Shown piece by piece: positions 1,360 to 32,653 of a DNA stretch of 64,000 nt. The notes beneath the pieces were generated by a model, which saw only the letters and a program-made list of their open reading frames with translations, was not told where the DNA came from and did no database searches. Origin of the DNA: Escherichia coli (GTDB lineage: Bacteria; Pseudomonadota; Gammaproteobacteria; Enterobacterales; Enterobacteriaceae); assembly GCF_044324785.1 (NCBI RefSeq), contig NZ_CP172127.1, one strand, 5' to 3'. How positions within the stretch are numbered: the stretch's first letter is position 1; every line of letters starts with the position of its first letter. Both the position numbers and the translations under genes were made by a program.

Positions 1360-1794
1360 CAGTGTTTCTCCTTTCGCCCGCCAGAGTAAAAAGCAACCGT
1401 TTACGTTAATGAAACTGTCTAAACACATGCTCGTGGAGTGCCAGTTTTTGCGAGGAAGGGGAGTTAGAGACAGGAATTGCGGAGGCAATCACATAATCGT
1501 GGTTAAACCACGAAAATGAGAAGAGAACCTGACAATGGAATTATCTGTAATTTTCTCATATTGATATTTCATTAATCATTCTGGCATGTCGCACTCTCGC
1601 TTTTAATCGTTTTTATCTGGATAGCGCTCTTTTGGTCGGCAATGTTGAAATAATGAAAGCGGCACAGATTGAGGGGCAATAATTTGAACTCAGTCGCAAA
1701 ATTATAATTAAAACGGTCATGCTACCTAATATATGCCCGTTTATTGCATCGCGAAATTTGAGAAGACATAACTCATTAAATGAAAGGGATGCAA

Positions 1795-5640: not shown

Positions 5641-6960
5641 TTAGTTGCGTTCGTACACCAGACGACCATCAACGTAGGTGCGGTAGATCGAACGGTCATC
5701 GCCCAACGTCATCATCACGAACAATTTGTCGACTAAAGAAACAGAGTTGTCATAGCGCAGCTGCTGTAGCGGAGTGGCGGTGGGTTCCATCACCACGAAA
5801 TCAGCCTCTTTGCCAGGTAAAAAGTTGCCAATCAAATCGTCAAGGCCCAGAGATTTCGCTCCGCCGAGCGTGGCCAGGTAAAATGCTTCATATGCCGAGA
5901 GGCGATAGCCTTGTAGTTGCAACACTTTGTAGGCTTCGTTTAGCGTTTGCAGCATGTTGAAAGTTGTTCCGGCACCGATATCCGTTCCCATGCCCACTTT
6001 GACTTTCTTCTGCCATGCTTTTTTCAAGTTGAATAAGCCGCTGCCGAGGTAAAGGTTGGAGGTCGGACAGAAAGCAATGCTGGATTTGGTTTCGCTGAGA
6101 CGATCCCACTCTTTTTCTTCGAGATGGACGCAGTGAGCAAAGACACAGTTTTTACCTGTCAGGCCATACTGGTGATAAACATCCAGATAGCCATCATGTT
6201 CAGGATAAAGTTCTTTCACCCAGGCAATTTCATCTTTGTTTTCACAGAGATGGGTATGTACCCACGTATCCGGATATTCTTCTTTCAGGCGTTGCGCCAT
6301 CGCCATCTGTTCAGGTGACGATGTTGGGGCGAAGCGTGGTGTAATGGCATATAACAGACGGCCATTTTTATGCCAGCGTTCGATCAGTTCTTTGCTTTGG
6401 TGATAGCTACTTTCCGCCGTGTCGAGCAGATAATCTGGCGCATTACGGTCCATCATCACTTTACCGGCAATCATTCGCATATTGATATGACTGGCGGCTT
6501 CAAACAACGCATCCACAGATTGTGGATGAACCGTACCAAACACCAGTGCCGTAGTCGTACCGTTACGTAAAAGCTGCTTGATGAAGAACGCCGACATTTC
6601 GCGGGCGTACTCTAAATCCTCATAACGACGTTCAGTAGGGAAGGTGTGTTTATTCAACCACTCCAGCAATTGCTCACCATAGGCTCCCACCATTTCACTT
6701 TGCGGATAATGGATATGTGTATCGACAAAGCCCGGTACTATCAGTTTGCCGCGATAGTCGCGCACGCGAATGGTGTCAGGAATTTGATGCTTTCCGTTTT
6801 CCCATTCGCCAAACCATTCCACTTTTCCCTGTTTAATAAGTAATAAACCATCCTCAATAAACCGCAGCGCAGAGGCAATCTCTTCCGGGTTATCGACCGT
6901 ACGGGTGACATCAATAAAACTGCCTCGTACCGCTTTTAACGTGTGTTCTCCTGACATCAT
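5641..6960 (-). CDS. guaD: Guanine deaminase (amidohydrolase superfamily)
   Basis: ORF 5641..7080 trimmed to the internal ATG (MMSGEHTLKAVRGSFIDV..., 439 aa) with AAGGAG RBS; amidohydrolase metal-binding HxH pattern. Confidence 0.85.
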   Translation of the reverse strand: MMSGEHTLKAVRGSFIDVTRTVDNPEEIASALRFIEDGLLLIKQGKVEWFGEWENGKHQIPDTIRVRDYRGKLIVPGFVDTHIHYPQSEMVGAYGEQLLEWLNKHTFPTERRYEDLEYAREMSAFFIKQLLRNGTTTALVFGTVHPQSVDALFEAASHINMRMIAGKVMMDRNAPDYLLDTAESSYHQSKELIERWHKNGRLLYAITPRFAPTSSPEQMAMAQRLKEEYPDTWVHTHLCENKDEIAWVKELYPEHDGYLDVYHQYGLTGKNCVFAHCVHLEEKEWDRLSETKSSIAFCPTSNLYLGSGLFNLKKAWQKKVKVGMGTDIGAGTTFNMLQTLNEAYKVLQLQGYRLSAYEAFYLATLGGAKSLGLDDLIGNFLPGKEADFVVMEPTATPLQQLRYDNSVSLVDKLFVMMTLGDDRSIYRTYVDGRLVYERN

Positions 6961-16666: not shown

Positions 16667-16817
16667 AACCCTCTCCTTAGCTTATACAGATATCATTGAG
16701 TGACCGGTGTTGAGAAATCCGGTGGTTTAGGGGGATAGAGCAACAATCGCACCACTCTTGCCAGGTTTGGCGGGAAATATAAAAAAATGTGAGGCGGCTC
16801 GAAACTTAGGAGCTTTT

Positions 16818-16833
16818 TGTGAATGAACTCACA
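16818..16833. promoter_or_regulatory. Candidate CRP binding site upstream of ygfK
   Basis: Perfect match to the CRP consensus half-sites TGTGA-N6-TCACA (tgtgaatgaactcaca), about 150 bp upstream of the ygfK start. Confidence 0.35.
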
Positions 16834-16987
16834 GGTGCCAAATGAGAATTAAAATCACTCCTGAAAATTATTATTGCCAGCCCATTTATCACTTTTTCTC
16901 TTTTCTCAAAATCAGTGATTCCTTATCATTATGATAAAGAGAACTGGAAGGGTTAAATATTTGAACGCAATCGTTTAACTACGTTTT

Positions 16988-17668: not shown

Positions 17669-18439
17669 GTGAAAAGTATAGTTGACCCATCGGCATTATT
17701 CATTGATTTAGGCGCGCAGAAACGTCCCACTGTGATTTCTGTTGTTGGGGCTGGGGGGAAAACCAGCTTGCTTTTTTGGCTGGCAGAACTGATCCAGGCT
17801 AGCGGCAGGCGTGTGTTAATCACTACGACGACACATATGTTTATGCCAACGTCTCACTGGCCCGTGGTTTTCTGTCGTGATCCCGCCATGCTTCCTCATG
17901 CGTCTCTTACATCCCCCATTTCATTTTGTTTTCACAGCTGGAAAGCGAACCAGGGAAAAGTGCAGGGATTTATGCCAGAAGCGATTGATGCACTGGTGCA
18001 ACGACCAGAGTGTGACGTAATTCTCATTGAGGCAGATGGCTCGCGTGGAATGCCGTTAAAAGCGCCTGATGAGCACGAACCTTGCATACCCAAAAGCAGT
18101 TGCTGCGTGATTGCTGTGATGGGAGGACATATTTTGGGCGCGAAAGTGAGCACAGAAAATGTCCATCGCTGGTCGCAGTTTGCTGATATTACCGGGTTAA
18201 CACCTGATGCAACCTTGCAACTGAGCGATCTCGTTGCGCTGGTTCGCCACCCTCAGGGCGCATTTAAAAACGTACCGCAAGGTTGTCGGCGAGTCTGGTT
18301 CATTAACCGTTTTTCTCAATGTGAGAATGCGATTGCGCAAAGCGAGCTCCTTCAACCGCTGCAACAACACGACGTAGAGGCAATCTGGCTGGGCGATATA
18401 CAAGAACATCCTGCAATCGCGCGCAGATTTGTGAATTAG
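17669..18439 (+). CDS. yqeC: Putative selenium-dependent hydroxylase accessory protein (P-loop)
   Basis: 256 aa; Walker A-like VVGAGGKTS; synteny. Confidence 0.8.
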   Translation: MKSIVDPSALFIDLGAQKRPTVISVVGAGGKTSLLFWLAELIQASGRRVLITTTTHMFMPTSHWPVVFCRDPAMLPHASLTSPISFCFHSWKANQGKVQGFMPEAIDALVQRPECDVILIEADGSRGMPLKAPDEHEPCIPKSSCCVIAVMGGHILGAKVSTENVHRWSQFADITGLTPDATLQLSDLVALVRHPQGAFKNVPQGCRRVWFINRFSQCENAIAQSELLQPLQQHDVEAIWLGDIQEHPAIARRFVN

Positions 18440-20152: not shown

Positions 20153-21085
20153 TTACTGACAAATCACCGTTCCGGTTTTGCCTTCAATCCCTTCTTTCGC
20201 TTTGCTCAATACGGTAATCAGTGCTTCACGACCTGCGCGAGAGCGAGCAAACGAGGCGGCAGCTTCCACTTTAGGCAGCATAGAACCTTTCGCAAAATGA
20301 CCTTCTTCGATAAAGCGTTCAGCATCACTTAATGACAGGCGATCGAGCCACTGTTCATTCTCTTTACCGAAGTTAATGGCCACTTTTTCTACCGCAGTCA
20401 GAATGATCAGCATATCGGCATCAATCATCTCTGCTAAACGGGCGCTGGCCCAGTCTTTATCAATAACCGCGCTGGCACCACGCAGATGGTTACCTTCACG
20501 AATAACAGGAATACCACCACCGCCAACGGTGATCACTACCTGGCCTGCATCTACCAGAGCTTTAACCGTTTCTTTTTCAATGATATCAACCGGTTTTGGC
20601 GAGGCAACAACACGGCGATAGCCGCGACCAGCATCTTCTTTCAGAGTGTAACCCTGTTTTGTCAGTTGCTCTGCTTCCTGCTCGGTAAAGAACGAACCGA
20701 TCGGCTTGGTCGGGTTGAGGAATGCCGGATCGTTAGCATCGACTTCGACCTGGGTAACCAGCGTTGCTACAGGTTTATTAATGCCACGAGAAAGCAGTTC
20801 TTCTCTTAAGGCGTTTTGTAGATCGTAACCAATATAGCCCTGGCTTAAGGCAACACAGACAGACATCGGCAGCATTGGCGAGTGCGCTTCAGTTTTTGCG
20901 GCAGCTTCAAAGGCCTGGTTAATCATGCCCACCTGTGGCCCGTTACCATGAGTGACGATGACCTCATGTCCCTGGGCAATTAAATCAACAATTGCCTGAG
21001 AAGTAATTTTTACCGCTTTCATTTGTCCGGCCAGGTCGTCGCCCAGCGCATTCCCGCCCAGGGCGAGAACAATTTTCTTACTCAT
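20153..21085 (-). CDS. yqeA: Carbamate kinase-like protein
   Basis: 310 aa; amino-acid kinase family N-terminus (KIVLALGGNAL); synteny. Confidence 0.85.
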   Translation of the reverse strand: MSKKIVLALGGNALGDDLAGQMKAVKITSQAIVDLIAQGHEVIVTHGNGPQVGMINQAFEAAAKTEAHSPMLPMSVCVALSQGYIGYDLQNALREELLSRGINKPVATLVTQVEVDANDPAFLNPTKPIGSFFTEQEAEQLTKQGYTLKEDAGRGYRRVVASPKPVDIIEKETVKALVDAGQVVITVGGGGIPVIREGNHLRGASAVIDKDWASARLAEMIDADMLIILTAVEKVAINFGKENEQWLDRLSLSDAERFIEEGHFAKGSMLPKVEAAASFARSRAGREALITVLSKAKEGIEGKTGTVICQ

Positions 21086-21132
21086 TTTTCCTCACTCATC
21101 ATTCTTGATTGTGTATAGATCCCTGGCAGTGG

Positions 21133-22518
21133 TTAGAGCACGGGAGGGACAAACGGTTTGCGTCGCAGGAATCGACCTCGCCCGGCTTTGCCTGTAAAGG
21201 TGCCGTCACAGAAAATCGTTTCACCACGGGATAAGGTTCTGACAATCGCGCCCTGACAGGTAAAACCCTCCCATGGCGAATAGTCAGCGTTGTCGTGGAG
21301 ATGGCGATGCTGAATTTGTTGGCTCTGACGTGGGTCGATAATCACCACGTCGCCATCGGAACCGGGCGCTAATAATCCTTTTTGCGGCCACAGGCCAAAC
21401 AGCCTGGCGGGCATCGCGCTGGTTAATTCAACAAAACGTTCCGGTGTTATACGTCCCGTCATTACGCCACTGGAAAACAGTAACTGCATGCGGTTTTCCA
21501 CACCGGGTAAGCCATTTGGGCAGCGACTGAAATCGCCTTTAGAAATTTGCAGGCGTTGAGCCATTGAGAACGTGCAGTGATCGGTCGCCACCACGTCAAT
21601 CGCACCATCGCTGATGCCACACCACAGTTTGTCCTGCTCGCGTACGTTACGCAGCGGTGGGCTAAGAATGAACTTCATGCCATCTTCTGTATCGTAACTG
21701 CGTTCGTCCAACAGGAGATATTGTGGGCAGGTTTCAACCCAGACTGGCTGGTGATTCGCACGGGCAAGACGCAGATAATCCAGACCTAAGCCGTTAGACA
21801 GGTGCACGATATAGAGCGGGGCGTTACCGGCAATTTGTGCCAGGTTAATCATGCGGGCGATGGCTTCCGCTTCGCATTCCAGAGGGCGACTCAAGGCGTG
21901 ATAGCGCGGCGCGGTTAACCCTGCGGCGATAAACTCCGCCCGCTTGCTGGCGATAGCTGCATCATTTTCCGGGTGCACGGTGGTCAGCGCGCCGGACTCA
22001 TGCAAGCGGCGTAACGCCTGCAAAACCTCGTCATCGTTGAGTTTGTATTGATAGGTTAAATAGAGTTTAAAACTGCTCAGTCCTTCTTCGACCATCATCG
22101 GAATTTCGTCGAGGATGGCGTGATTAATGTGCTGGATCACACCGTGAAAGCTGTAGTCGATGACCGCCTTATGGGCGGCATAGCCACGATAAACCTCCAG
22201 TTGATGGCGTAACCGACAGCCGTTTGGGCCAAATCCCATATGGTCAATAATGGTTGTTGTACCGCCACACGCAGCTGCGCGGGTACCGGTAAAAAAATCA
22301 TCACAACTGCGCGCGATGCCGACATCAATATTGAAATGCGTATGGACATCCACGCCGCCAGGGAAAACGTAACAGCCAGTGGCATCAATTTCTTCATACG
22401 GGAGCTGCGGCGAAATATTGTTGCCCAACTGGCGAACAATCCCGCTTTCAATCAGCAAATCCTGTTTGGCTTGTCCATCTGCGTTAACGACAGTGCCGTT
22501 TTTGATCAATACGCGCAT
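21133..22518 (-). CDS. hyuA: D-hydantoinase / cyclic amidohydrolase
   Basis: ORF 21133..22530 trimmed to MRVLIKNGTVV... (461 aa); HxH (DVHTHF) metal motif; synteny. Confidence 0.85.
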   Translation of the reverse strand: MRVLIKNGTVVNADGQAKQDLLIESGIVRQLGNNISPQLPYEEIDATGCYVFPGGVDVHTHFNIDVGIARSCDDFFTGTRAAACGGTTTIIDHMGFGPNGCRLRHQLEVYRGYAAHKAVIDYSFHGVIQHINHAILDEIPMMVEEGLSSFKLYLTYQYKLNDDEVLQALRRLHESGALTTVHPENDAAIASKRAEFIAAGLTAPRYHALSRPLECEAEAIARMINLAQIAGNAPLYIVHLSNGLGLDYLRLARANHQPVWVETCPQYLLLDERSYDTEDGMKFILSPPLRNVREQDKLWCGISDGAIDVVATDHCTFSMAQRLQISKGDFSRCPNGLPGVENRMQLLFSSGVMTGRITPERFVELTSAMPARLFGLWPQKGLLAPGSDGDVVIIDPRQSQQIQHRHLHDNADYSPWEGFTCQGAIVRTLSRGETIFCDGTFTGKAGRGRFLRRKPFVPPVL

Positions 22519-22526
22519 AGCAAACT

Positions 22527-22553
22527 CCAAAAACCCTCCGGCGAACCGGAGGG
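22527..22553 (-). terminator. Intercistronic hairpin plus T-run between ygeY and hyuA (possible attenuator)
   Basis: ccctccgg-cgaa-ccggaggg followed on the minus strand by TTTTTGGAG; the T-run overlaps the hyuA RBS. Confidence 0.4.
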
Positions 22554-22570
22554 GAATAAGTGAAGAGTAA

Positions 22571-23782
22571 TTATTCGGTTGCCAGCCAGCTTAACGGGAT
22601 TGCAGCGTACATCGCGGCACAGGTCACCAGGTGAGATTTCCAGGTTTTTTCGTTAGGTGCATGCGCTTCAGGTTCTTTACCCGGGCCAAAGCCGATCACC
22701 GGAATGCCGTGACGGCCCATGATAGATACGCCGTTAGTTGAGAAGGTCCACTTATCAACAACCGGCGCTTTGCCAAACAGCCCTTCGTAGGCATTCACCA
22801 GTGCTTTAACGGTGAAGTGATCTTCTTCCACTTTCCAGGTCGGGAAGTAGCATTCGGTTGGGTAAACCAGGCCAGTCCAGGACGGACGGTCGTAGTTGTA
22901 CATAGAAACAACCGCGTTAGCTTTCTGTACTGCAGGCAGGGCGCGGATTTCGTCCAGCGCGCCTTCCCAGGTTTCGCCCCAGGTCAGACGGCGGTCAATA
23001 GAGACGGCGCAGCTATCTGCTACTGCGCAACGGCTTGGGGATGTGAAGAAGATTTCAGAAACGGTGAGGGTGCCTTTGCCGAGGAATTCGTCATAACCCA
23101 GACGTTGGGAGAGTTCTTGTAATTCGCCAAGAATCGGACCCATTTTGAAAATGGCGTTGTCACCGCGTTCTGGTGCAGAACCGTGGCAGCTAACACCCTG
23201 AACATCAATACGAATTTCCATACGACCGCGTTGACCACGGTATACCTGGCAATCAGTCGGTTCAGTACTGACCACAAATTCCGGGCGAATGCCGGATTGT
23301 TCAATAATGTACTGCCAGCACAGACCGTCGCAGTCTTCTTCCTGCACCGTACCGGTAACCAGCAGGGTATATTCATCTTCCAGACCGAGGTCTTTAATGA
23401 TTTTACCGGCATAAACCATAGAGGCCATGCCGCCTTCCTGGTCGGAAGTACCGCGACCACCGATCAGTTCATCAGTTTCCATGCCTTCGTACGGATCGAA
23501 GTCCCAGTTTTTGATGTTGCCAATGCCGACGGTATCAATATGAGCGTCCATTGCCACCAGACGCGGGCCGTGGCCGATATAACCGAGAACGTTGCCCATC
23601 GGGTCGATTTCAACTTTATCGAAGCCGACTTTTTCCATCTCTTCTTTAATACGATGTACTACGCGTTTTTCATCGCAGCTTTCACTGGGAATAGCAACCA
23701 TATCGCGCAGAAAGCGAGTCATGTCTGCCTGGTAATCTTTTGCTTTTTCAAGAATCAGTTTGAATGGAATATTCTTAGCCAT
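22571..23782 (-). CDS. ygeY: M20-family peptidase (ArgE/DapE-like)
   Basis: 403 aa; M20 metal-binding pattern; synteny. Confidence 0.85.
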
Positions 23783-23839
23783 TATTTTTCTCCAGATTTT
23801 TTACTCCCCGTTTTGCGGGGAGCAGTTCCAATAGGGTGA

Positions 23840-25036
23840 TTAAGGTGCTACAGCGTGTTTGCCTTCCCAGACAACTTCGCGGTAGTGCTTCACGTCTGTG
23901 TCGCCTTCAGTGCTGATAACCAGCACTACGGCATCTTTGTTCAGCGCCAGTTTTTCCATCAGGCTTTGACGTTGCGGGTGATAATGAACCGCTGCGAGAA
24001 CGCCCAAACCGACAGCGCCAGATTCACCGGAGATGATGCGTGGATCGTTGCCGTACGGATTACCCAGTACGCGCATACCTAATGCGGCAACGCTGTCCTG
24101 GCAGGAGATGAATTGGGTGGCGCAGTTACGTAGGATTTCCCAGCCCAGCGGGTTAGGTTCGCCACAGGCCAGGCCTGCCATGATGGTGGCCATATCACCG
24201 CCAACGTTGACGATGTCGCCTTTGACGCCAGAGCGATAAATACAGTCAGCTTTGTCAGGTTCAACAATAATGCTGTGCAGATTTTGCGGGCTGTAGACGT
24301 CGACCAGATAACCCAGCACACCACCAGCCATTGCACCGACACCGGCTTGCAGCAGAACGTGCGTCGGGGTTACGCCCATTTCACGCATTTGCTCGACGGC
24401 TTCATCTGCCAGTGTTGCGTAGCCTTGCATGATCCAGGTTGGGATTTTGGTGTAACCTTCCCAGGCGGTATCTTGCACCACTTCCCAGCCGTGCTGCTGC
24501 GCGTGTTGCATGGTCAGGCGAACGGTATCGTCATAGTTCATATCCGTGACGATGCACTCGGCACCGAGGTTCAGAATGGCGTCAACGCGTTCCTGAGCAG
24601 AACCTTTCGGCATGTAAATCACCGCATTCTGTCCGAGTTGCTGTGCTGCCCACGCCACACCGCGCCCGTGGTTGCCGTCGGTGGTGGTCGCGAAAGTCAT
24701 TTTTTCGCCGATGGCATTTTTCAGGTGCTCAAATGACAGCGTTTCGATATCAAGATGATATTTTTCGCACAATAATTGAGCGATGGCGTATGCACCGCCG
24801 AGCATTTTGAAGGCGTTCAGACCGAATCGTTTTGATTCGTCTTTGACGAGAATTTTCTTCACACCAAAAAGGTTTGCGAGATCGTCCAGCGCACAAAGCG
24901 GTGTTGGGCGATAACCAGCAATTTTCTGGTGGAACTGGCGCGCCAGTTTGGCCTGGCTTTGCGAAAAGAGCGGTGATGTTTCGCCGTTGAAAAATTTGTT
25001 ATCGGCGATATCAATCTTCAATGAGAAAACGGACAT
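23840..25036 (-). CDS. ygeX: PLP-dependent 2,3-diaminopropionate ammonia-lyase
   Basis: 398 aa; PLP-lysine region (NAFKMLGG); synteny with K-12 ygeX (dpaL). Confidence 0.85.
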   Translation of the reverse strand: MSVFSLKIDIADNKFFNGETSPLFSQSQAKLARQFHQKIAGYRPTPLCALDDLANLFGVKKILVKDESKRFGLNAFKMLGGAYAIAQLLCEKYHLDIETLSFEHLKNAIGEKMTFATTTDGNHGRGVAWAAQQLGQNAVIYMPKGSAQERVDAILNLGAECIVTDMNYDDTVRLTMQHAQQHGWEVVQDTAWEGYTKIPTWIMQGYATLADEAVEQMREMGVTPTHVLLQAGVGAMAGGVLGYLVDVYSPQNLHSIIVEPDKADCIYRSGVKGDIVNVGGDMATIMAGLACGEPNPLGWEILRNCATQFISCQDSVAALGMRVLGNPYGNDPRIISGESGAVGLGVLAAVHYHPQRQSLMEKLALNKDAVVLVISTEGDTDVKHYREVVWEGKHAVAP

Positions 25037-25093
25037 ATCCTATCCTTTTGGCCTCTGGAAATAGAGGGCCGACCAGCTGATCGGCCCGAGGGG

Positions 25094-26284
25094 TTATTTC
25101 ACGCGTTCTTGCGCTTCTTTCAGCAGTTGCTCGAGCAGTGCACCTGGTTTGGCGTATTTACGGGACAGGATCATCGCGGCGATGATATAAGGCTTCCAGC
25201 TGGCTTCTTTGTAGGTCGCGATACGGTATTTTTCGAATACGCCTTCAGTCACTTCACCTTCTTTGCAGGATACGCCGCTGATATCAGCTGGCAGGCAGTG
25301 CATGTACAGGGCTTCGCCATCACGGGTCAGTTCCATCATCTCTTCGGTGCAATGCCAGTCTTTGTGCTGAGCGTTCTGCGCCAGACACTGTTTTTCCAGT
25401 GCTTTTAAGCCTTCGTGATCGTTAGCGCGCAGCAATTCAGTACGCTCTTCCATCACTTTGTAAGGTGCCCATGACTTCGGATAAACGATGTCTGCGTCTT
25501 TGAAGGCTTCTTCCATGCTGGTGACCTGACGGAAGCTACCGCCGGAGGCTTTAGCATTGTTTTTAGCGACTTCAACGACATCCGGGATCAGGTCGTAGCC
25601 TTCCGGATGGGCCAGGGTGACATCCATACCGAAGCGAGTCATCAGACCGATGATGCCTTGTGGTACAGAGAGCGGTTTGCCATAGCTTGGGGAGTAGGCC
25701 CAGGTCATGGCGATTTTTTTACCTTTCAGGTTTTCCAGTGAACCAAAGTGTTCACGTAACCATGCGAGGTCAGCCATTGACTGAGTCGGGTGGTCAATAT
25801 CGCATTGCAGGTTCACTAAAGCCGGACGCTGCGGCAGTACGCCCTGCTTGTAGCCGTCATCAAGTGCAGCGCCAACTTCACGCATATAAGCGTTGCCTGC
25901 GCCCAGATACATATCGTCACGAATACCGATGGCATCGGCGCAGAAGGAGATCATATTGGCGGTTTCACGCACGGTTTCGCCGTGAGCGATTTGTGATTTG
26001 CCTTCGTCGAGATCTTGCTGTGCAAGGCCGAGCAGGTTAAGCGCGGAAGCATAAGAGAAGCGGGTACGGGTGGAGTTGTCGCGGAATACGGAAATACCTA
26101 ATCCACTATTAAAGACTTTGGTTGAGATGTTTTCAGCACGCAGTGCTTTTAATGCTGCGGCAACGTCCAGTACTTGTTTCAGTTCATCTGGCGTCTGTTC
26201 CCACGTTAACAAAAAATCTTTCTCGTGAAGGTGAGAGGTCAGCGAATTGATATCCTTAATCAGCTCATTAACAGTTTTCATCAT
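25094..26284 (-). CDS. ygeW: Carbamoyltransferase (ATCase/OTCase family)
   Basis: 396 aa; carbamoyl-phosphate binding STRTR and HCLP motifs present. Confidence 0.85.
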   Translation of the reverse strand: MMKTVNELIKDINSLTSHLHEKDFLLTWEQTPDELKQVLDVAAALKALRAENISTKVFNSGLGISVFRDNSTRTRFSYASALNLLGLAQQDLDEGKSQIAHGETVRETANMISFCADAIGIRDDMYLGAGNAYMREVGAALDDGYKQGVLPQRPALVNLQCDIDHPTQSMADLAWLREHFGSLENLKGKKIAMTWAYSPSYGKPLSVPQGIIGLMTRFGMDVTLAHPEGYDLIPDVVEVAKNNAKASGGSFRQVTSMEEAFKDADIVYPKSWAPYKVMEERTELLRANDHEGLKALEKQCLAQNAQHKDWHCTEEMMELTRDGEALYMHCLPADISGVSCKEGEVTEGVFEKYRIATYKEASWKPYIIAAMILSRKYAKPGALLEQLLKEAQERVK

Positions 26285-26376
26285 AAAGTCCCGGTAGTGG
26301 AATGACAGGCAAAGAGGTTTATTTCACTGTGACTTGCCAAAAGTGATTGGTCTTTTCACAGCTATACCTGGGACTA

Positions 26377-26391
26377 ACAATAACTATGCCA
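26377..26391 (-). promoter_or_regulatory. Candidate sigma54 (-24/-12) promoter for ygeW
   Basis: Minus-strand TGGCAT-N5-TTGT (consensus TGGCAC-N5-TTGC; one mismatch in the -12 element) about 95 bp upstream of ygeW, next to the divergently encoded sigma54 activator ygeV. Confidence 0.3.
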
Positions 26392-26760
26392 GAATTATCC
26401 AAGCGGCTGCAAAAGACTAATTTGACGGGTAATGTGTGGGGTTGATCACAAATTGATGCCAGCTTCTGGTTGTTTGTAAAATACGAAAACGTTTGGCTTT
26501 TTTTATCGCGTTATTTATTTGCTGCTAAGTATCAGAAATAAGATAAAGGGGCAGGTTATCCCTCGTCAGTTTGATAAACTCACCGCCGTAATTCTCATAT
26601 TGATATAGAAATGTGATATCTCTTCCATAATTTCATTAGAAAGTGATAAAAATCTTATGTTTTTATCAAAGCCAATTTCGTCTGAGTTAATATCATCATG
26701 ATCTGTGAACCATCAACGTCTTCAATGATCGACTTTTAAGTAAGTCTGGAAGGTAAAGCT

Positions 26761-28539
26761 ATGGAGCTTGCTACTACGCAGTCAGTACTGATGCAAATTC
26801 AACCGACAATTCAGCGTTTTGCCAGAATGCTTGCCAGCGTTTTGCAGCTTGAGGTTGAGATCGTTGATGAAAACTTGTGTCGCGTCGCCGGAACGGGCGC
26901 GTATGGGAAGTTTCTTGGTCGCCAGTTGAGCGGCAACTCACGCCTGCTCCGCCACGTCCTGGAAACGAAAACTGAAAAAGTTGTGACACAATCTCGCTTC
27001 GATCCCCTTTGCGAAGGTTGCGATAGTAAAGAAAATTGCCGTGAAAAAGCATTTCTGGGTACGCCTGTCATTTTACAGGATCGTTGTGTTGGGGTGATAA
27101 GTTTGATTGCCGTTACCCACGAGCAACAAGAACATATCAGTGATAATTTACGCGAATTTTCTGATTACGTTCGCCATATATCCACCATTTTTGTTTCGAA
27201 ACTTCTGGAGGATCAGGGGCCAGGAGATAACATCAGTAAAATATTCGCGACCATGATCGATAATATGGATCAGGGCGTATTAGTTGTTGATGATGAAAGT
27301 CGGGTTCAGTTTGTTAATCAGACTGCCTTAAAAACACTCGGTGTTGTGCAAAATAATATTATTGGGAAACCTATCCGTTTCAGACCATTAACATTTGAGA
27401 GTAATTTTACCCATGGACATATGCAGCATATTGTTTCGTGGGACGATAAAAGTGAATTAATCATTGGTCAATTGCATAACATTCAGGGCCGACAATTATT
27501 TTTAATGGCGTTTCACCAATCGCATACCAGTTTTTCTGTAGCAAATGCACCTGATGAACCGCATATTGAACAATTGGTTGGCGAGTGCCGTGTTATGCGG
27601 CAATTAAAACGACTCATTAGCCGTATTGCACCCAGCCCATCCAGCGTTATGGTGGTTGGTGAAAGCGGCACGGGTAAAGAAGTCGTCGCCCGTGCAATCC
27701 ATAAGTTGAGCGGAAGACGGAATAAACCTTTTATTGCTATCAACTGTGCCGCGATTCCGGAGCAGCTTCTGGAGAGCGAACTGTTCGGTTATGTTAAAGG
27801 CGCATTTACTGGCGCTTCTGCCAACGGTAAAACAGGGTTGATTCAGGCGGCGAATACGGGCACGCTGTTTCTCGATGAAATAGGTGATATGCCATTAATG
27901 TTGCAGGCTAAATTACTGCGCGCTATTGAGGCGCGTGAAATTCTGCCGATTGGTGCCAGTAGCCCAATACAAGTCGACATCCGCATCATTTCTGCAACTA
28001 ATCAGAATTTGGCCCAGTTCATTGCCGAAGGTAAATTCCGCGAAGATCTCTTCTACCGACTTAATGTTATCCCGATAACTCTTCCACCGCTGCGTGAACG
28101 TCAGGAAGATATTGAACTACTAGTGCATTACTTTTTACATCTGCATACCCGTCGTCTGGGATCGGTTTATCCTGGCATTGCTCCTGATGTCGTCGAAATA
28201 TTGCGTAAGCATCGTTGGCCCGGAAACCTGCGCGAGTTAAGCAATTTGATGGAATATCTGGTTAACGTTGTTCCTTCAGGTGAAGTTATCGATAGCACGC
28301 TATTGCCGCCAAATCTGCTGAATAATGGCACAACGGAACAAAGTGATGTAACAGAGGTCAGCGAGGCGCACCTCGCACTCGATGATGCGGGCGGCACGGC
28401 GCTGGAGGAGATGGAAAAGCAAATGATCCGCGAGGCGCTTTCACGTCATAACAGCAAGAAGCAAGTTGCTGATGAACTGGGCATCGGCATTGCTACGCTC
28501 TATCGCAAGATTAAAAAATATGAGTTGTTAAACACATAA
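26761..28539 (+). CDS. ygeV: Sigma54-dependent transcriptional activator (enhancer-binding protein)
   Basis: 592 aa; AAA+ core with Walker A GESGTGKE and the sigma54-contact GAFTGA motif; C-terminal HTH. Confidence 0.85.
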   Translation: MELATTQSVLMQIQPTIQRFARMLASVLQLEVEIVDENLCRVAGTGAYGKFLGRQLSGNSRLLRHVLETKTEKVVTQSRFDPLCEGCDSKENCREKAFLGTPVILQDRCVGVISLIAVTHEQQEHISDNLREFSDYVRHISTIFVSKLLEDQGPGDNISKIFATMIDNMDQGVLVVDDESRVQFVNQTALKTLGVVQNNIIGKPIRFRPLTFESNFTHGHMQHIVSWDDKSELIIGQLHNIQGRQLFLMAFHQSHTSFSVANAPDEPHIEQLVGECRVMRQLKRLISRIAPSPSSVMVVGESGTGKEVVARAIHKLSGRRNKPFIAINCAAIPEQLLESELFGYVKGAFTGASANGKTGLIQAANTGTLFLDEIGDMPLMLQAKLLRAIEAREILPIGASSPIQVDIRIISATNQNLAQFIAEGKFREDLFYRLNVIPITLPPLRERQEDIELLVHYFLHLHTRRLGSVYPGIAPDVVEILRKHRWPGNLRELSNLMEYLVNVVPSGEVIDSTLLPPNLLNNGTTEQSDVTEVSEAHLALDDAGGTALEEMEKQMIREALSRHNSKKQVADELGIGIATLYRKIKKYELLNT

Positions 28540-32202: not shown

Positions 32203-32653
32203 GCAAGATTCACCCGTAGCGGTTGCTTCCCGCGCTTCCATAGAAATCCCCTCGATTTGAACATTTGGTTCTTATGGCAAAGATTTAGTCTAAGCAGGCA
32301 AGATTTACGCCAGAAACGACGATAAGCGTTAGGGGAGGAAGGAAGTGTGATGACGTTAAAAAAACACAGATATGATACGAAACAGGACCCTGAATAGGGA
32401 CAGTGATACGTATCAATATGAGTGGCGATAAAATCAATGTGATAAATCAGGATTATTACGCATCAGGATGGAAATAGGGTAAAAGTCAGGAACTTCGATA
32501 CCTCTGCAGCGAATATTTTGCTGATGATACTTCCCTTTGCCAAATGAAATTAACCTCTTTCTCTATTACCGCGTTTTTCCAGAAGCAAGAGATTGGGTAT
32601 CCAGAGGCTGGCTGCTATGATATGGCGTCTTGTTTTTTAAGCGAGGAAAGATT

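Follow-up and report, generated by a model that had tools for sequence, protein, structure and literature searches.

A conserved sigma-54 promoter element, palindromic enhancer candidates and CRP sites in the divergent ygeV-ygeW control region of Escherichia coli

Within the 64,000-nucleotide stretch of Escherichia coli chromosome analysed here (the window), which is closest to strain PCN033 and whose orientation is opposite to that of K-12, a 476-bp spacer (26285-26760) separates ygeW on the minus strand (25094..26284) from ygeV (isrR) on the plus strand (26761..28539). ygeW is the first gene of the co-directional block ygeW-ygeX(dpaL)-ygeY-hyuA-yqeA(arcC) (20153-26284), in which the gaps from ygeW to yqeA measure 47-57 bp. 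On the minus strand, GC-rich hairpins follow ygeW (25087-25066), ygeY (22553-22534, then a T-run) and yqeA (20146-20121, the strongest of them and terminator-like). It is plausible that ygeW to yqeA constitute one operon, within whose five genes the internal hairpins may attenuate read-through; literature and database listings give ygeW or ygeWXY as the unit (quoted in PMC10602906 and PMC8743547). The genes xdhCBA lie on the other side of ygeV, and further left are yqeB, yqeC, mocA, ygfK-ssnA-ygfM-xdhD, xanQ, guaD, ghxQ, ygfS, ygfT and uacT. The right half of the window (~33500-64000), unrelated to the ygeW promoter, carries a tRNA-Gly-linked island with an integrase and IS100 and then a nearly intact ETT2 type III secretion cluster that contains one frameshifted sctQ-like gene and ends at ygeH.

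An earlier note on this DNA, made from the letters of the sequence, had labelled the ygeW block a carbamate pathway, a label now superseded, as these genes have since been assigned to the lower part of reductive uric-acid (2,8-dioxopurine) degradation (PMC12507026). YgeW cleaves the 2-ureido group by phosphorolysis, yielding carbamoyl phosphate that supports ATP generation together with the carbamate kinase YqeA (PMC12507026). The operon is part of uric-acid removal by gut bacteria, a process of relevance to gout and hyperuricaemia. Differences between strains in urate consumption have been put down to regulation (2025 preprint), and in a 2025 study the ygeV/ygeW spacer was swapped for constitutive promoters to escape glucose repression.

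The ygeV product comprises an N-terminal region, a PAS domain, an AAA+ domain with the GAFTGA motif and an HTH_8 domain. The 'YVKGAFTGASANG' of its translation and its Pfam domains (PF00158, Sigma54_activat, 8e-71; PF02954, HTH_8, 1e-13; AAA-lid; PAS) bear out the earlier identification of a sigma-54 enhancer-binding protein, and the best PDB matches of the AAA+ core are NtrC, FleQ, ZraR and PspF. YgeV/IsrR has been described as an 'orphan response regulator' (PMC9426417), and Kumar et al. tied it to indole and LEE genes, not to purines. A Response_reg receiver domain gave no Pfam match, residues 1-160 being without Pfam assignment and followed by PAS; judged by its domains, YgeV resembles an activator that senses a ligand more than it does a member of a two-component pair. 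The N-terminal sensor had no relative in a PDB sequence search, which thus offered no clue to the ligand.

The candidate -24/-12 element of ygeW, which the earlier note had described as TGGCAT-N5-TTGT, is present on the minus strand at 26376..26392 as CTGGCATAGTTATTGTT, and its assignment draws on a weight matrix, on the position of a K-12 ChIP-seq site and on conservation. Its GG occupies 26390-26389 and its -12 'GT' 26378-26377, so that the -12 motif reads TTGT, not TTGC; the predicted start is at ~26365, 80-81 nt from the ATG. The distance of ~95 bp to ygeW was likewise accurate: counted from the 3' end of the element, the first ATG (26284) is 92 bp away and the RefSeq start (26281) 95 bp. 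The count of one mismatch to the consensus holds only if TGGCAY is allowed; against TGGCAC-N5-TTGCW there are two. In layout the element conforms to sigma-54 promoters, with GG at -24/-25 in TGGCA, TTG at -14 to -12 and 10 nt from the GG to the -12 dinucleotide. At -12, T replaces the canonical C, which is typical, not obligatory: among 135 bound E. coli sites this base is C in 125, A in six and T in four. The four bound sites with T are those of pspA, pspG and ygeW and one antisense site, and pspA and pspG are confirmed promoters.

Consensus matches with two or fewer mismatches numbered 42 in the window, vs 42.1 expected from shuffled sequence; as plain consensus counting cannot tell the ygeW site from chance, a weight matrix of ChIP sites was used instead. 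This was built from 130 ChIP-seq sites, the ygeW site and four other cluster sites having been omitted from the 135 of Bonocora et al. (2015). With it, the ygeW element scored 14.2 bits and ranked second of 127,968 positions, and the three highest matches in the window were the xdhA, ygeW and ygfK promoters. Approximately 2.1 sites with such a score are expected per 64 kb, and the probability of finding one on the right strand of the 476-bp spacer is P = 0.004. When only the ygeW site was omitted (134-site matrix), 40% of the ChIP sites that went into the matrix scored below the ygeW element. A second TGGCAT in the spacer (GCTGGCATCAATTTGTG, ~26454-26470, minus strand) was rejected as a promoter, as its spacing (N4) is wrong, its score is low and it overlaps a CRP site. 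A hairpin in the ygeW leader was not significant (z = -0.98). Elsewhere in the window, the sigma-54 matrix gave 14.0 bits for CTGGCGCGTTATGTGCA (42458-42474, plus strand), which is located within a glycoside hydrolase family 15 gene of a strain-specific island, in the sense direction, and is absent from the K-12 ChIP tables.

Both the sigma-54 site and the idea of control by YgeV are already known from the literature. Table 1 of Bonocora et al. (2015) lists ChIP-seq site OS30 (peak 3,004,190; motif CTGGCACACTTATTGTT; ygeW; 80 nt upstream; FAT 3; PMC4591121), and genomic SELEX with RpoN holoenzyme gave an in vitro peak in the ygeV/ygeW spacer at 3,004,270 (53-55%; Shimada et al. 2021, PMC8743547). 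ChIP occupancy (FAT) was 3 at ygeW vs 11 at xdhA and 26 at ygfK, and Bonocora et al. caution that many sigma-54 binding sites may be unproductive as promoters (PMC4591121). Sigma-54 promoters upstream of xdhABC and ygeWXY were attributed to Reitzer & Schneider (2001), as cited in PMC10602906. Lamoureux et al. (2023) described a 'YgeV iModulon' in which xdhABC, ygeWXY, hyuA, ygfK, ssnA, ygfM, xdhD, ygfT and uacT co-vary, proposed YgeV as its activator and found it almost never active under laboratory conditions (PMC10602906). Lower ygfT expression in a ygeV mutant has been reported. Urate use is stated to require ygeV (Iwadate & Kato 2019, as cited by another paper). In the searchable literature we found no report of rpoN or ygeV dependence of ygeW, no mapped start and no YgeV binding site.

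The published site and the one studied here are the same, the K-12 and window spacers being 99% identical over a 506-column alignment. The promoter alleles differ at two positions (CAT-AG in the window vs CAC-AC in K-12) and have the GG and TTGTT core in common. The window allele, CTGGCATAGTTATTGTT, is a minority form: of 5,426 complete E. coli genomes, 193 have the exact 45-mer (26362-26406), vs 4,862 with the K-12-type 45-mer, which contains CTGGCACACTTATTGTT. The sigma-54 binding data (ChIP-seq and gSELEX) refer to the K-12 allele. The TGGCATAGTTATTGTT core of the window allele was also observed in Hafnia.

For comparison, 80 ygeW loci from other species were collected. TTGGCAY-N5-TTG[T/A]T was found upstream of ygeW in all 18 gammaproteobacterial loci, which include Edwardsiella, Pluralibacter, Serratia, Enterobacter, Hafnia, Kosakonia, Cedecea, Erwinia, Aeromonas, Photobacterium and one MAG labelled Rhodocyclaceae, with scores of 12.4-15.4 bits and a distance to ygeW of 68-112 bp (231 bp in one locus). 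Most of these 18 loci also carried a divergent ygeV orthologue (52-76% identity). The -12 base was never C; most Enterobacterales have T there, whereas Aeromonas, most Photobacterium, Erwinia and Serratia oryzae have A. Therefore, what the earlier note had counted as a mismatch is a conserved feature of the promoter and not decay. A weak closed complex at ygeW would fit the low ChIP occupancy (FAT 3). Outside Gammaproteobacteria, recurrent motifs upstream of ygeW in Bacteroidota (TTGGnCCGGGAAATGAA) and Firmicutes (GTGCCGCnGTATATGCA) were considered as a riboswitch or operator and rejected, as they are the coding 3' end of ygeY (GFGPG.E..AHAPNE); no Rfam family was found at these sequences. The same ygeY 3' end precedes ygeW in loci L027-L080, where it gives rise to a sigma-54 matrix artefact 57-400 bp upstream of ygeW.

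Alignment of 15 ygeV-ygeW spacers revealed four conserved blocks upstream of the promoter: two candidate upstream activating sequences (UAS1 and UAS2), a CRP site and a CRP-like block. UAS1, the candidate YgeV enhancer, is ATATCAATATGAGAA on the minus strand and TTCTCATATTGATAT on the plus strand (26592..26606, centre ~-234, 19.6 bits), and its alignment block reads TATCA-N3-TGATAA. UAS2, a half-conserved palindrome 29 bp downstream of UAS1, is TTATCAAACTGACGA on the minus strand (26563..26577, centre ~-205, 8.6 bits), and its TTATCA-N3-TG is conserved in 13 species. Both lie within the usual ~80-250 bp upstream of a sigma-54 promoter. A third, UAS-like palindrome, ATATCATCATGATCT (26690..26704, 10.8 bits), overlaps a conserved candidate ygeV -10 (TAATAT/TATCAT) and has positional counterparts at -332 in L008 and L010; its position over the presumed ygeV -10 may provide autoregulation. 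The inverted repeats that the earlier note had suggested looking for upstream of ygeW were thus found, and they are conserved, common to the other sigma-54 promoters of the cluster and a match to the motif predicted for the clostridial regulator DioR.

Each of the four sigma-54 promoters in the cluster (ygeW, xdhA, ygfK and ygfT) has a conserved TTATCA-N3-TGATAA palindrome 130-235 bp upstream. The ygfK promoter, GTGGTGCGATTGTTGCT (16739..16755, minus strand), is preceded at ~-201 by the perfect palindrome TTATCATTATGATAA (16923..16937), the best match of the whole window at 22.7 bits. Upstream of the xdhA promoter, CTGGCGTAAATCTTGCC (32297..32313, minus strand), two palindromes, TTATCACATTGATTT and CACTCATATTGATAC on the minus strand (32410..32445; ~-151 and ~-130), stand 21 bp apart, a spacing that differs from the 29 bp at ygeW. 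The ygfT sigma-54 site, TATGCCCGTTTATTGCA (1732..1748, plus strand; ChIP-seq OS32), has at ~-198, in the uacT-ygfT spacer, a 15-mer identical to ygeW UAS1, TTCTCATATTGATAT (1553..1567). When a palindrome matrix trained solely on non-E. coli UAS1 sites was scanned over the window, its three best matches fell upstream of ygfK, ygfT and ygeW, with xdhA at ranks 8 and 10, and there were eight matches of at least 12 bits vs 1.5 expected. Intragenic palindrome matches were also observed in yqeC (TTCTCAATGTGAGAA, 18313-18327, near the intragenic sigma-54 ChIP site at 18070-18086), ygeX (ATATCAAGATGATAT, 24747-24761) and guaD (TTCGCATATTGATAT, 6474-6488). On the uacT side of its spacer, CTGGCACTCCACGAGCA (1428-1444, minus strand, 69 nt upstream of uacT) keeps GG-N10-GC and scores only 5.9 bits; the 1553-1567 palindrome would be at ~-144 from it, so that uacT and ygfT might share one enhancer.

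The pairing of promoter and palindrome extends to every gammaproteobacterial locus with enough upstream DNA. In loci on which the matrix had not been trained (two Aeromonas, the Rhodocyclaceae MAG and Erwinia), the palindrome was the single best match of 9 kb and lay 175-255 bp upstream of the promoter. Outside Gammaproteobacteria, one locus alone carried a YgeV homologue, that of Desulfosporosinus (35% identity along the whole protein), in which the activator gene is followed by GTCTCAAAATGAGAC, ATCTCAATTTGAGAC and the near-consensus promoter TTGGCATTGTTCTTGCA. Among the approximately 60 other ygeW loci of the 80 scanned, none carried the pair. TTATCA-N3-TGATAA is very probably the YgeV/DioR operator, judging from this co-occurrence and from its identity to the DioR enhancer motif predicted on the same genes.

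Between the ygeW enhancer and promoter lies the CRP site TGTGATCAACCCCACA, read on the minus strand (26435..26450, centre ~-77.5), with one mismatch to TGTGA-N6-TCACA and conserved in the alignment as cGTGA-N6-TCaCA; its position fits no standard class. TGTGA-N6-TCACA with at most one mismatch has only four matches in the 64 kb, two of which are located between an enhancer and a promoter, at ygeW and at ygfK. The latter, TGTGAATGAACTCACA (16818..16833, ~-96), is a perfect site, and at xdhA no convincing CRP site was found. Adjoining UAS1, a CRP-like site, TGTGATATCTCTTCCA on the plus strand (26612..26627), sits at ~-82 from the putative ygeV start; it is conserved as TGCAA-N6-TCACA in the 15-spacer alignment, which suggests a regulatory role. 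CRP gSELEX targets include ygeV<>ygeW, ygfT<>ygfU and ygfK (Shimada et al. 2011), and going by their sequences, 26435-26450 and 16818-16833 would be the exact sites bound. A 'native Crp-binding site' in the ygeV/ygeW spacer has been mentioned and urate degradation is glucose-repressed (PMC12507026). An IHF core (WATCAANNNNTTR) was absent between enhancer and promoter at ygeW, ygfK and ygfT. On the strength of the CRP sites, the glucose repression and the lack of an IHF core, we propose CRP as the bending element.

We consider it probable that the element serves ygeW and the co-directional genes downstream of it as a sigma-54 promoter, activated by YgeV through the palindromes, with CRP acting between enhancer and promoter. 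Sigma-54 RNA polymerase, whose binding itself is documented in K-12, would rest on the element as a weak closed complex, and transcription would require the divergently encoded YgeV. On sensing a purine-derived ligand through its N-terminal/PAS region, YgeV would bind the palindromes at ~-234 and ~-205, form an AAA+ ring and loop to the promoter, which its GAFTGA loops would then melt. CRP-cAMP at ~-77.5 may supply the DNA bend, as IHF does at other sigma-54 promoters; this part is a guess, and such a role would account for the glucose repression of urate degradation. As the palindrome-CRP-promoter arrangement recurs at ygfK and the palindrome-promoter arrangement at xdhA and ygfT, the cluster appears to behave as one YgeV regulon. 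Sigma-54 binding in K-12 and conservation across genera together with a divergent ygeV support, and do not prove, the control of the ygeW operon by YgeV and sigma-54 that the earlier note had suggested. Against this reading speak the low ChIP occupancy and the caution of Bonocora et al., the missing C at -12, the unequal spacing of the paired palindromes at ygeW and xdhA, the unusual CRP position, the lack of a convincing CRP site at xdhA and the link of YgeV to indole and LEE genes.

The best-surviving alternative, which we nevertheless regard as unlikely, is that the sigma-54 site is poised or non-productive and that ygeW is transcribed by sigma-70 from a CRP-activated promoter in the spacer. 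It would accommodate the low ChIP occupancy and its authors' warning that binding is not promoter (PMC4591121), the CRP site and the glucose repression on record, and an iModulon that is almost never active in the laboratory; there is also a GATAAT hexamer (26399-26394) just upstream of the -24 element. However, upstream of the -24 element a sigma-70 scan gave no -35/-10 pair of acceptable quality that points to ygeW; its sole minus-strand candidate lies in the leader and ends within the first ygeW codons, and for ygeV it gave only weak candidates. Other genera do not keep the GATAAT; they do keep the -24/-12 element, at a conserved distance from the palindromes, and the module of palindrome and sigma-54 promoter recurs at three other promoters and in Firmicutes.

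Less probable again is a functional sigma-54 promoter served by another enhancer-binding protein, e.g. NtrC under nitrogen limitation, with the palindromes belonging to a different factor. Urate serves as a nitrogen source, roughly a dozen enhancer-binding activators exist in E. coli and the YgeV site is a predicted one; the AT-rich palindrome, moreover, we take to be loosely like Fur-type boxes. Its half-sites are, however, everted relative to the Fur 7-1-7 box, and across phyla the promoter-palindrome pair goes together with a YgeV/DioR-type gene, ygeW loci without such a gene lacking the pair. In the available text of the RpoN promoter table of Shimada 2021 (PMC8743547), which gives an NtrC class for some peaks, the ygeV/ygeW row carries no NtrC-class mark, unlike, for example, the 'II-B' at mutM. 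The published binding in ChIP-seq and gSELEX effectively refutes a chance match in an AT-rich spacer, which the shuffled-sequence frequency of consensus matches might suggest; the matrix rank (P = 0.004) and retention in 18 genomes at a fixed distance also speak against it.

The proposed activation of the sigma-54 promoter by YgeV has a close counterpart in the DioR regulon of Clostridiales, a computational prediction (Nie et al. 2019, PMC6615313) with UAS sites predicted as ATTTATCAAAGTGATAAGT, ATTTATCATAATGATAAGG and TATTATCATTTTGATAATA, and AATTCTCGTATTGATAAAA in C. difficile (PMC6615313 supplement). DioR has the same targets (dpaL, ygeW-ygfK-ssnA-ygeY, yqeC..xdhC and xdhABC) with sigma-54 promoters, a UAS of TTATCA-N3-TGATAA or TTCTCA-N3-TGAGAA located 175-390 bp upstream in Clostridia, and the same regulator layout of sensor, PAS, AAA+ (GAFTGA) and HTH_8. 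The systems differ in their promoters, which are near-consensus in Clostridia (TTGGCAT-N5-TTGCT) and at gammaproteobacterial ygeW always have TTGT or TTGA, in that no CRP is involved in Clostridia, and in that DioR is GAF-PAS-AAA-HTH_8, whereas Pfam calls PAS but no GAF in YgeV. The kinship of the two regulators was gauged indirectly, through the Desulfosporosinus homologue next to ygeW (35% identity, full length).

Within enteric bacteria, prpR-prpBCDE of E. coli and Salmonella likewise has an activator gene that diverges from a sigma-54 catabolic operon across a single spacer, with a metabolite-sensing, non-receiver activator and positive input from cAMP-CRP. As it needs PrpR, cAMP-CRP and IHF, by analogy it is the closest precedent for CRP at ygeW; unlike ygeW, where the IHF core is absent, it uses IHF too, and its ligand and UAS are different. 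The pspF-pspA pair is similar in its divergent activator and in a sigma-54 promoter with the rare TTGT at -12. There, the enhancer sites overlap the activator's own promoter, resulting in autoregulation, an arrangement suggested likewise for ygeV by the palindrome at 26690-26704. PspF, however, is without a sensory domain and controlled by PspA, and the system is IHF-dependent and of unrelated function.

More tentatively, and with the balance leaning somewhat against it, YgeV and DioR may be one ancient family that moved with the anaerobic urate cluster across phyla and kept the operator TTATCA-N3-TGATAA. Under this proposal, the gammaproteobacterial lineage would have been rewired, with CRP replacing IHF at ygeW and ygfK and the ygeW -12 fixed as TTGT/TTGA (never TTGC), tuning closed-complex strength or leakiness. 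If true, the palindrome would define the full YgeV regulon (ygeW, xdhA, ygfK, ygfT and possibly uacT) and would offer a direct way to track down the inducing purine and to engineer probiotics that lower urate. To the existing record the present analysis adds the conserved non-canonical -12, the palindromic candidate enhancer that links YgeV to the clostridial DioR regulon and the CRP sites at two of the four promoters; the palindrome and the CRP sites constitute concrete, testable targets in the native regulation.

As a further observation in the spacer, the PurR operator ACGCAAACGTTTGCGT, with three or fewer mismatches, had only two matches in the window vs 0.47 expected, and ygeW has been placed in a putative PurR regulon by a 2015 computational paper (PMC4576408). 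One match, AGCCAAACGTTTTCGT on the minus strand (26483-26498), lies between the ygeW enhancer and the CRP site and is found in E. coli and not conserved in other genera; the other (1391-1406) is situated 32-47 bp upstream of uacT.
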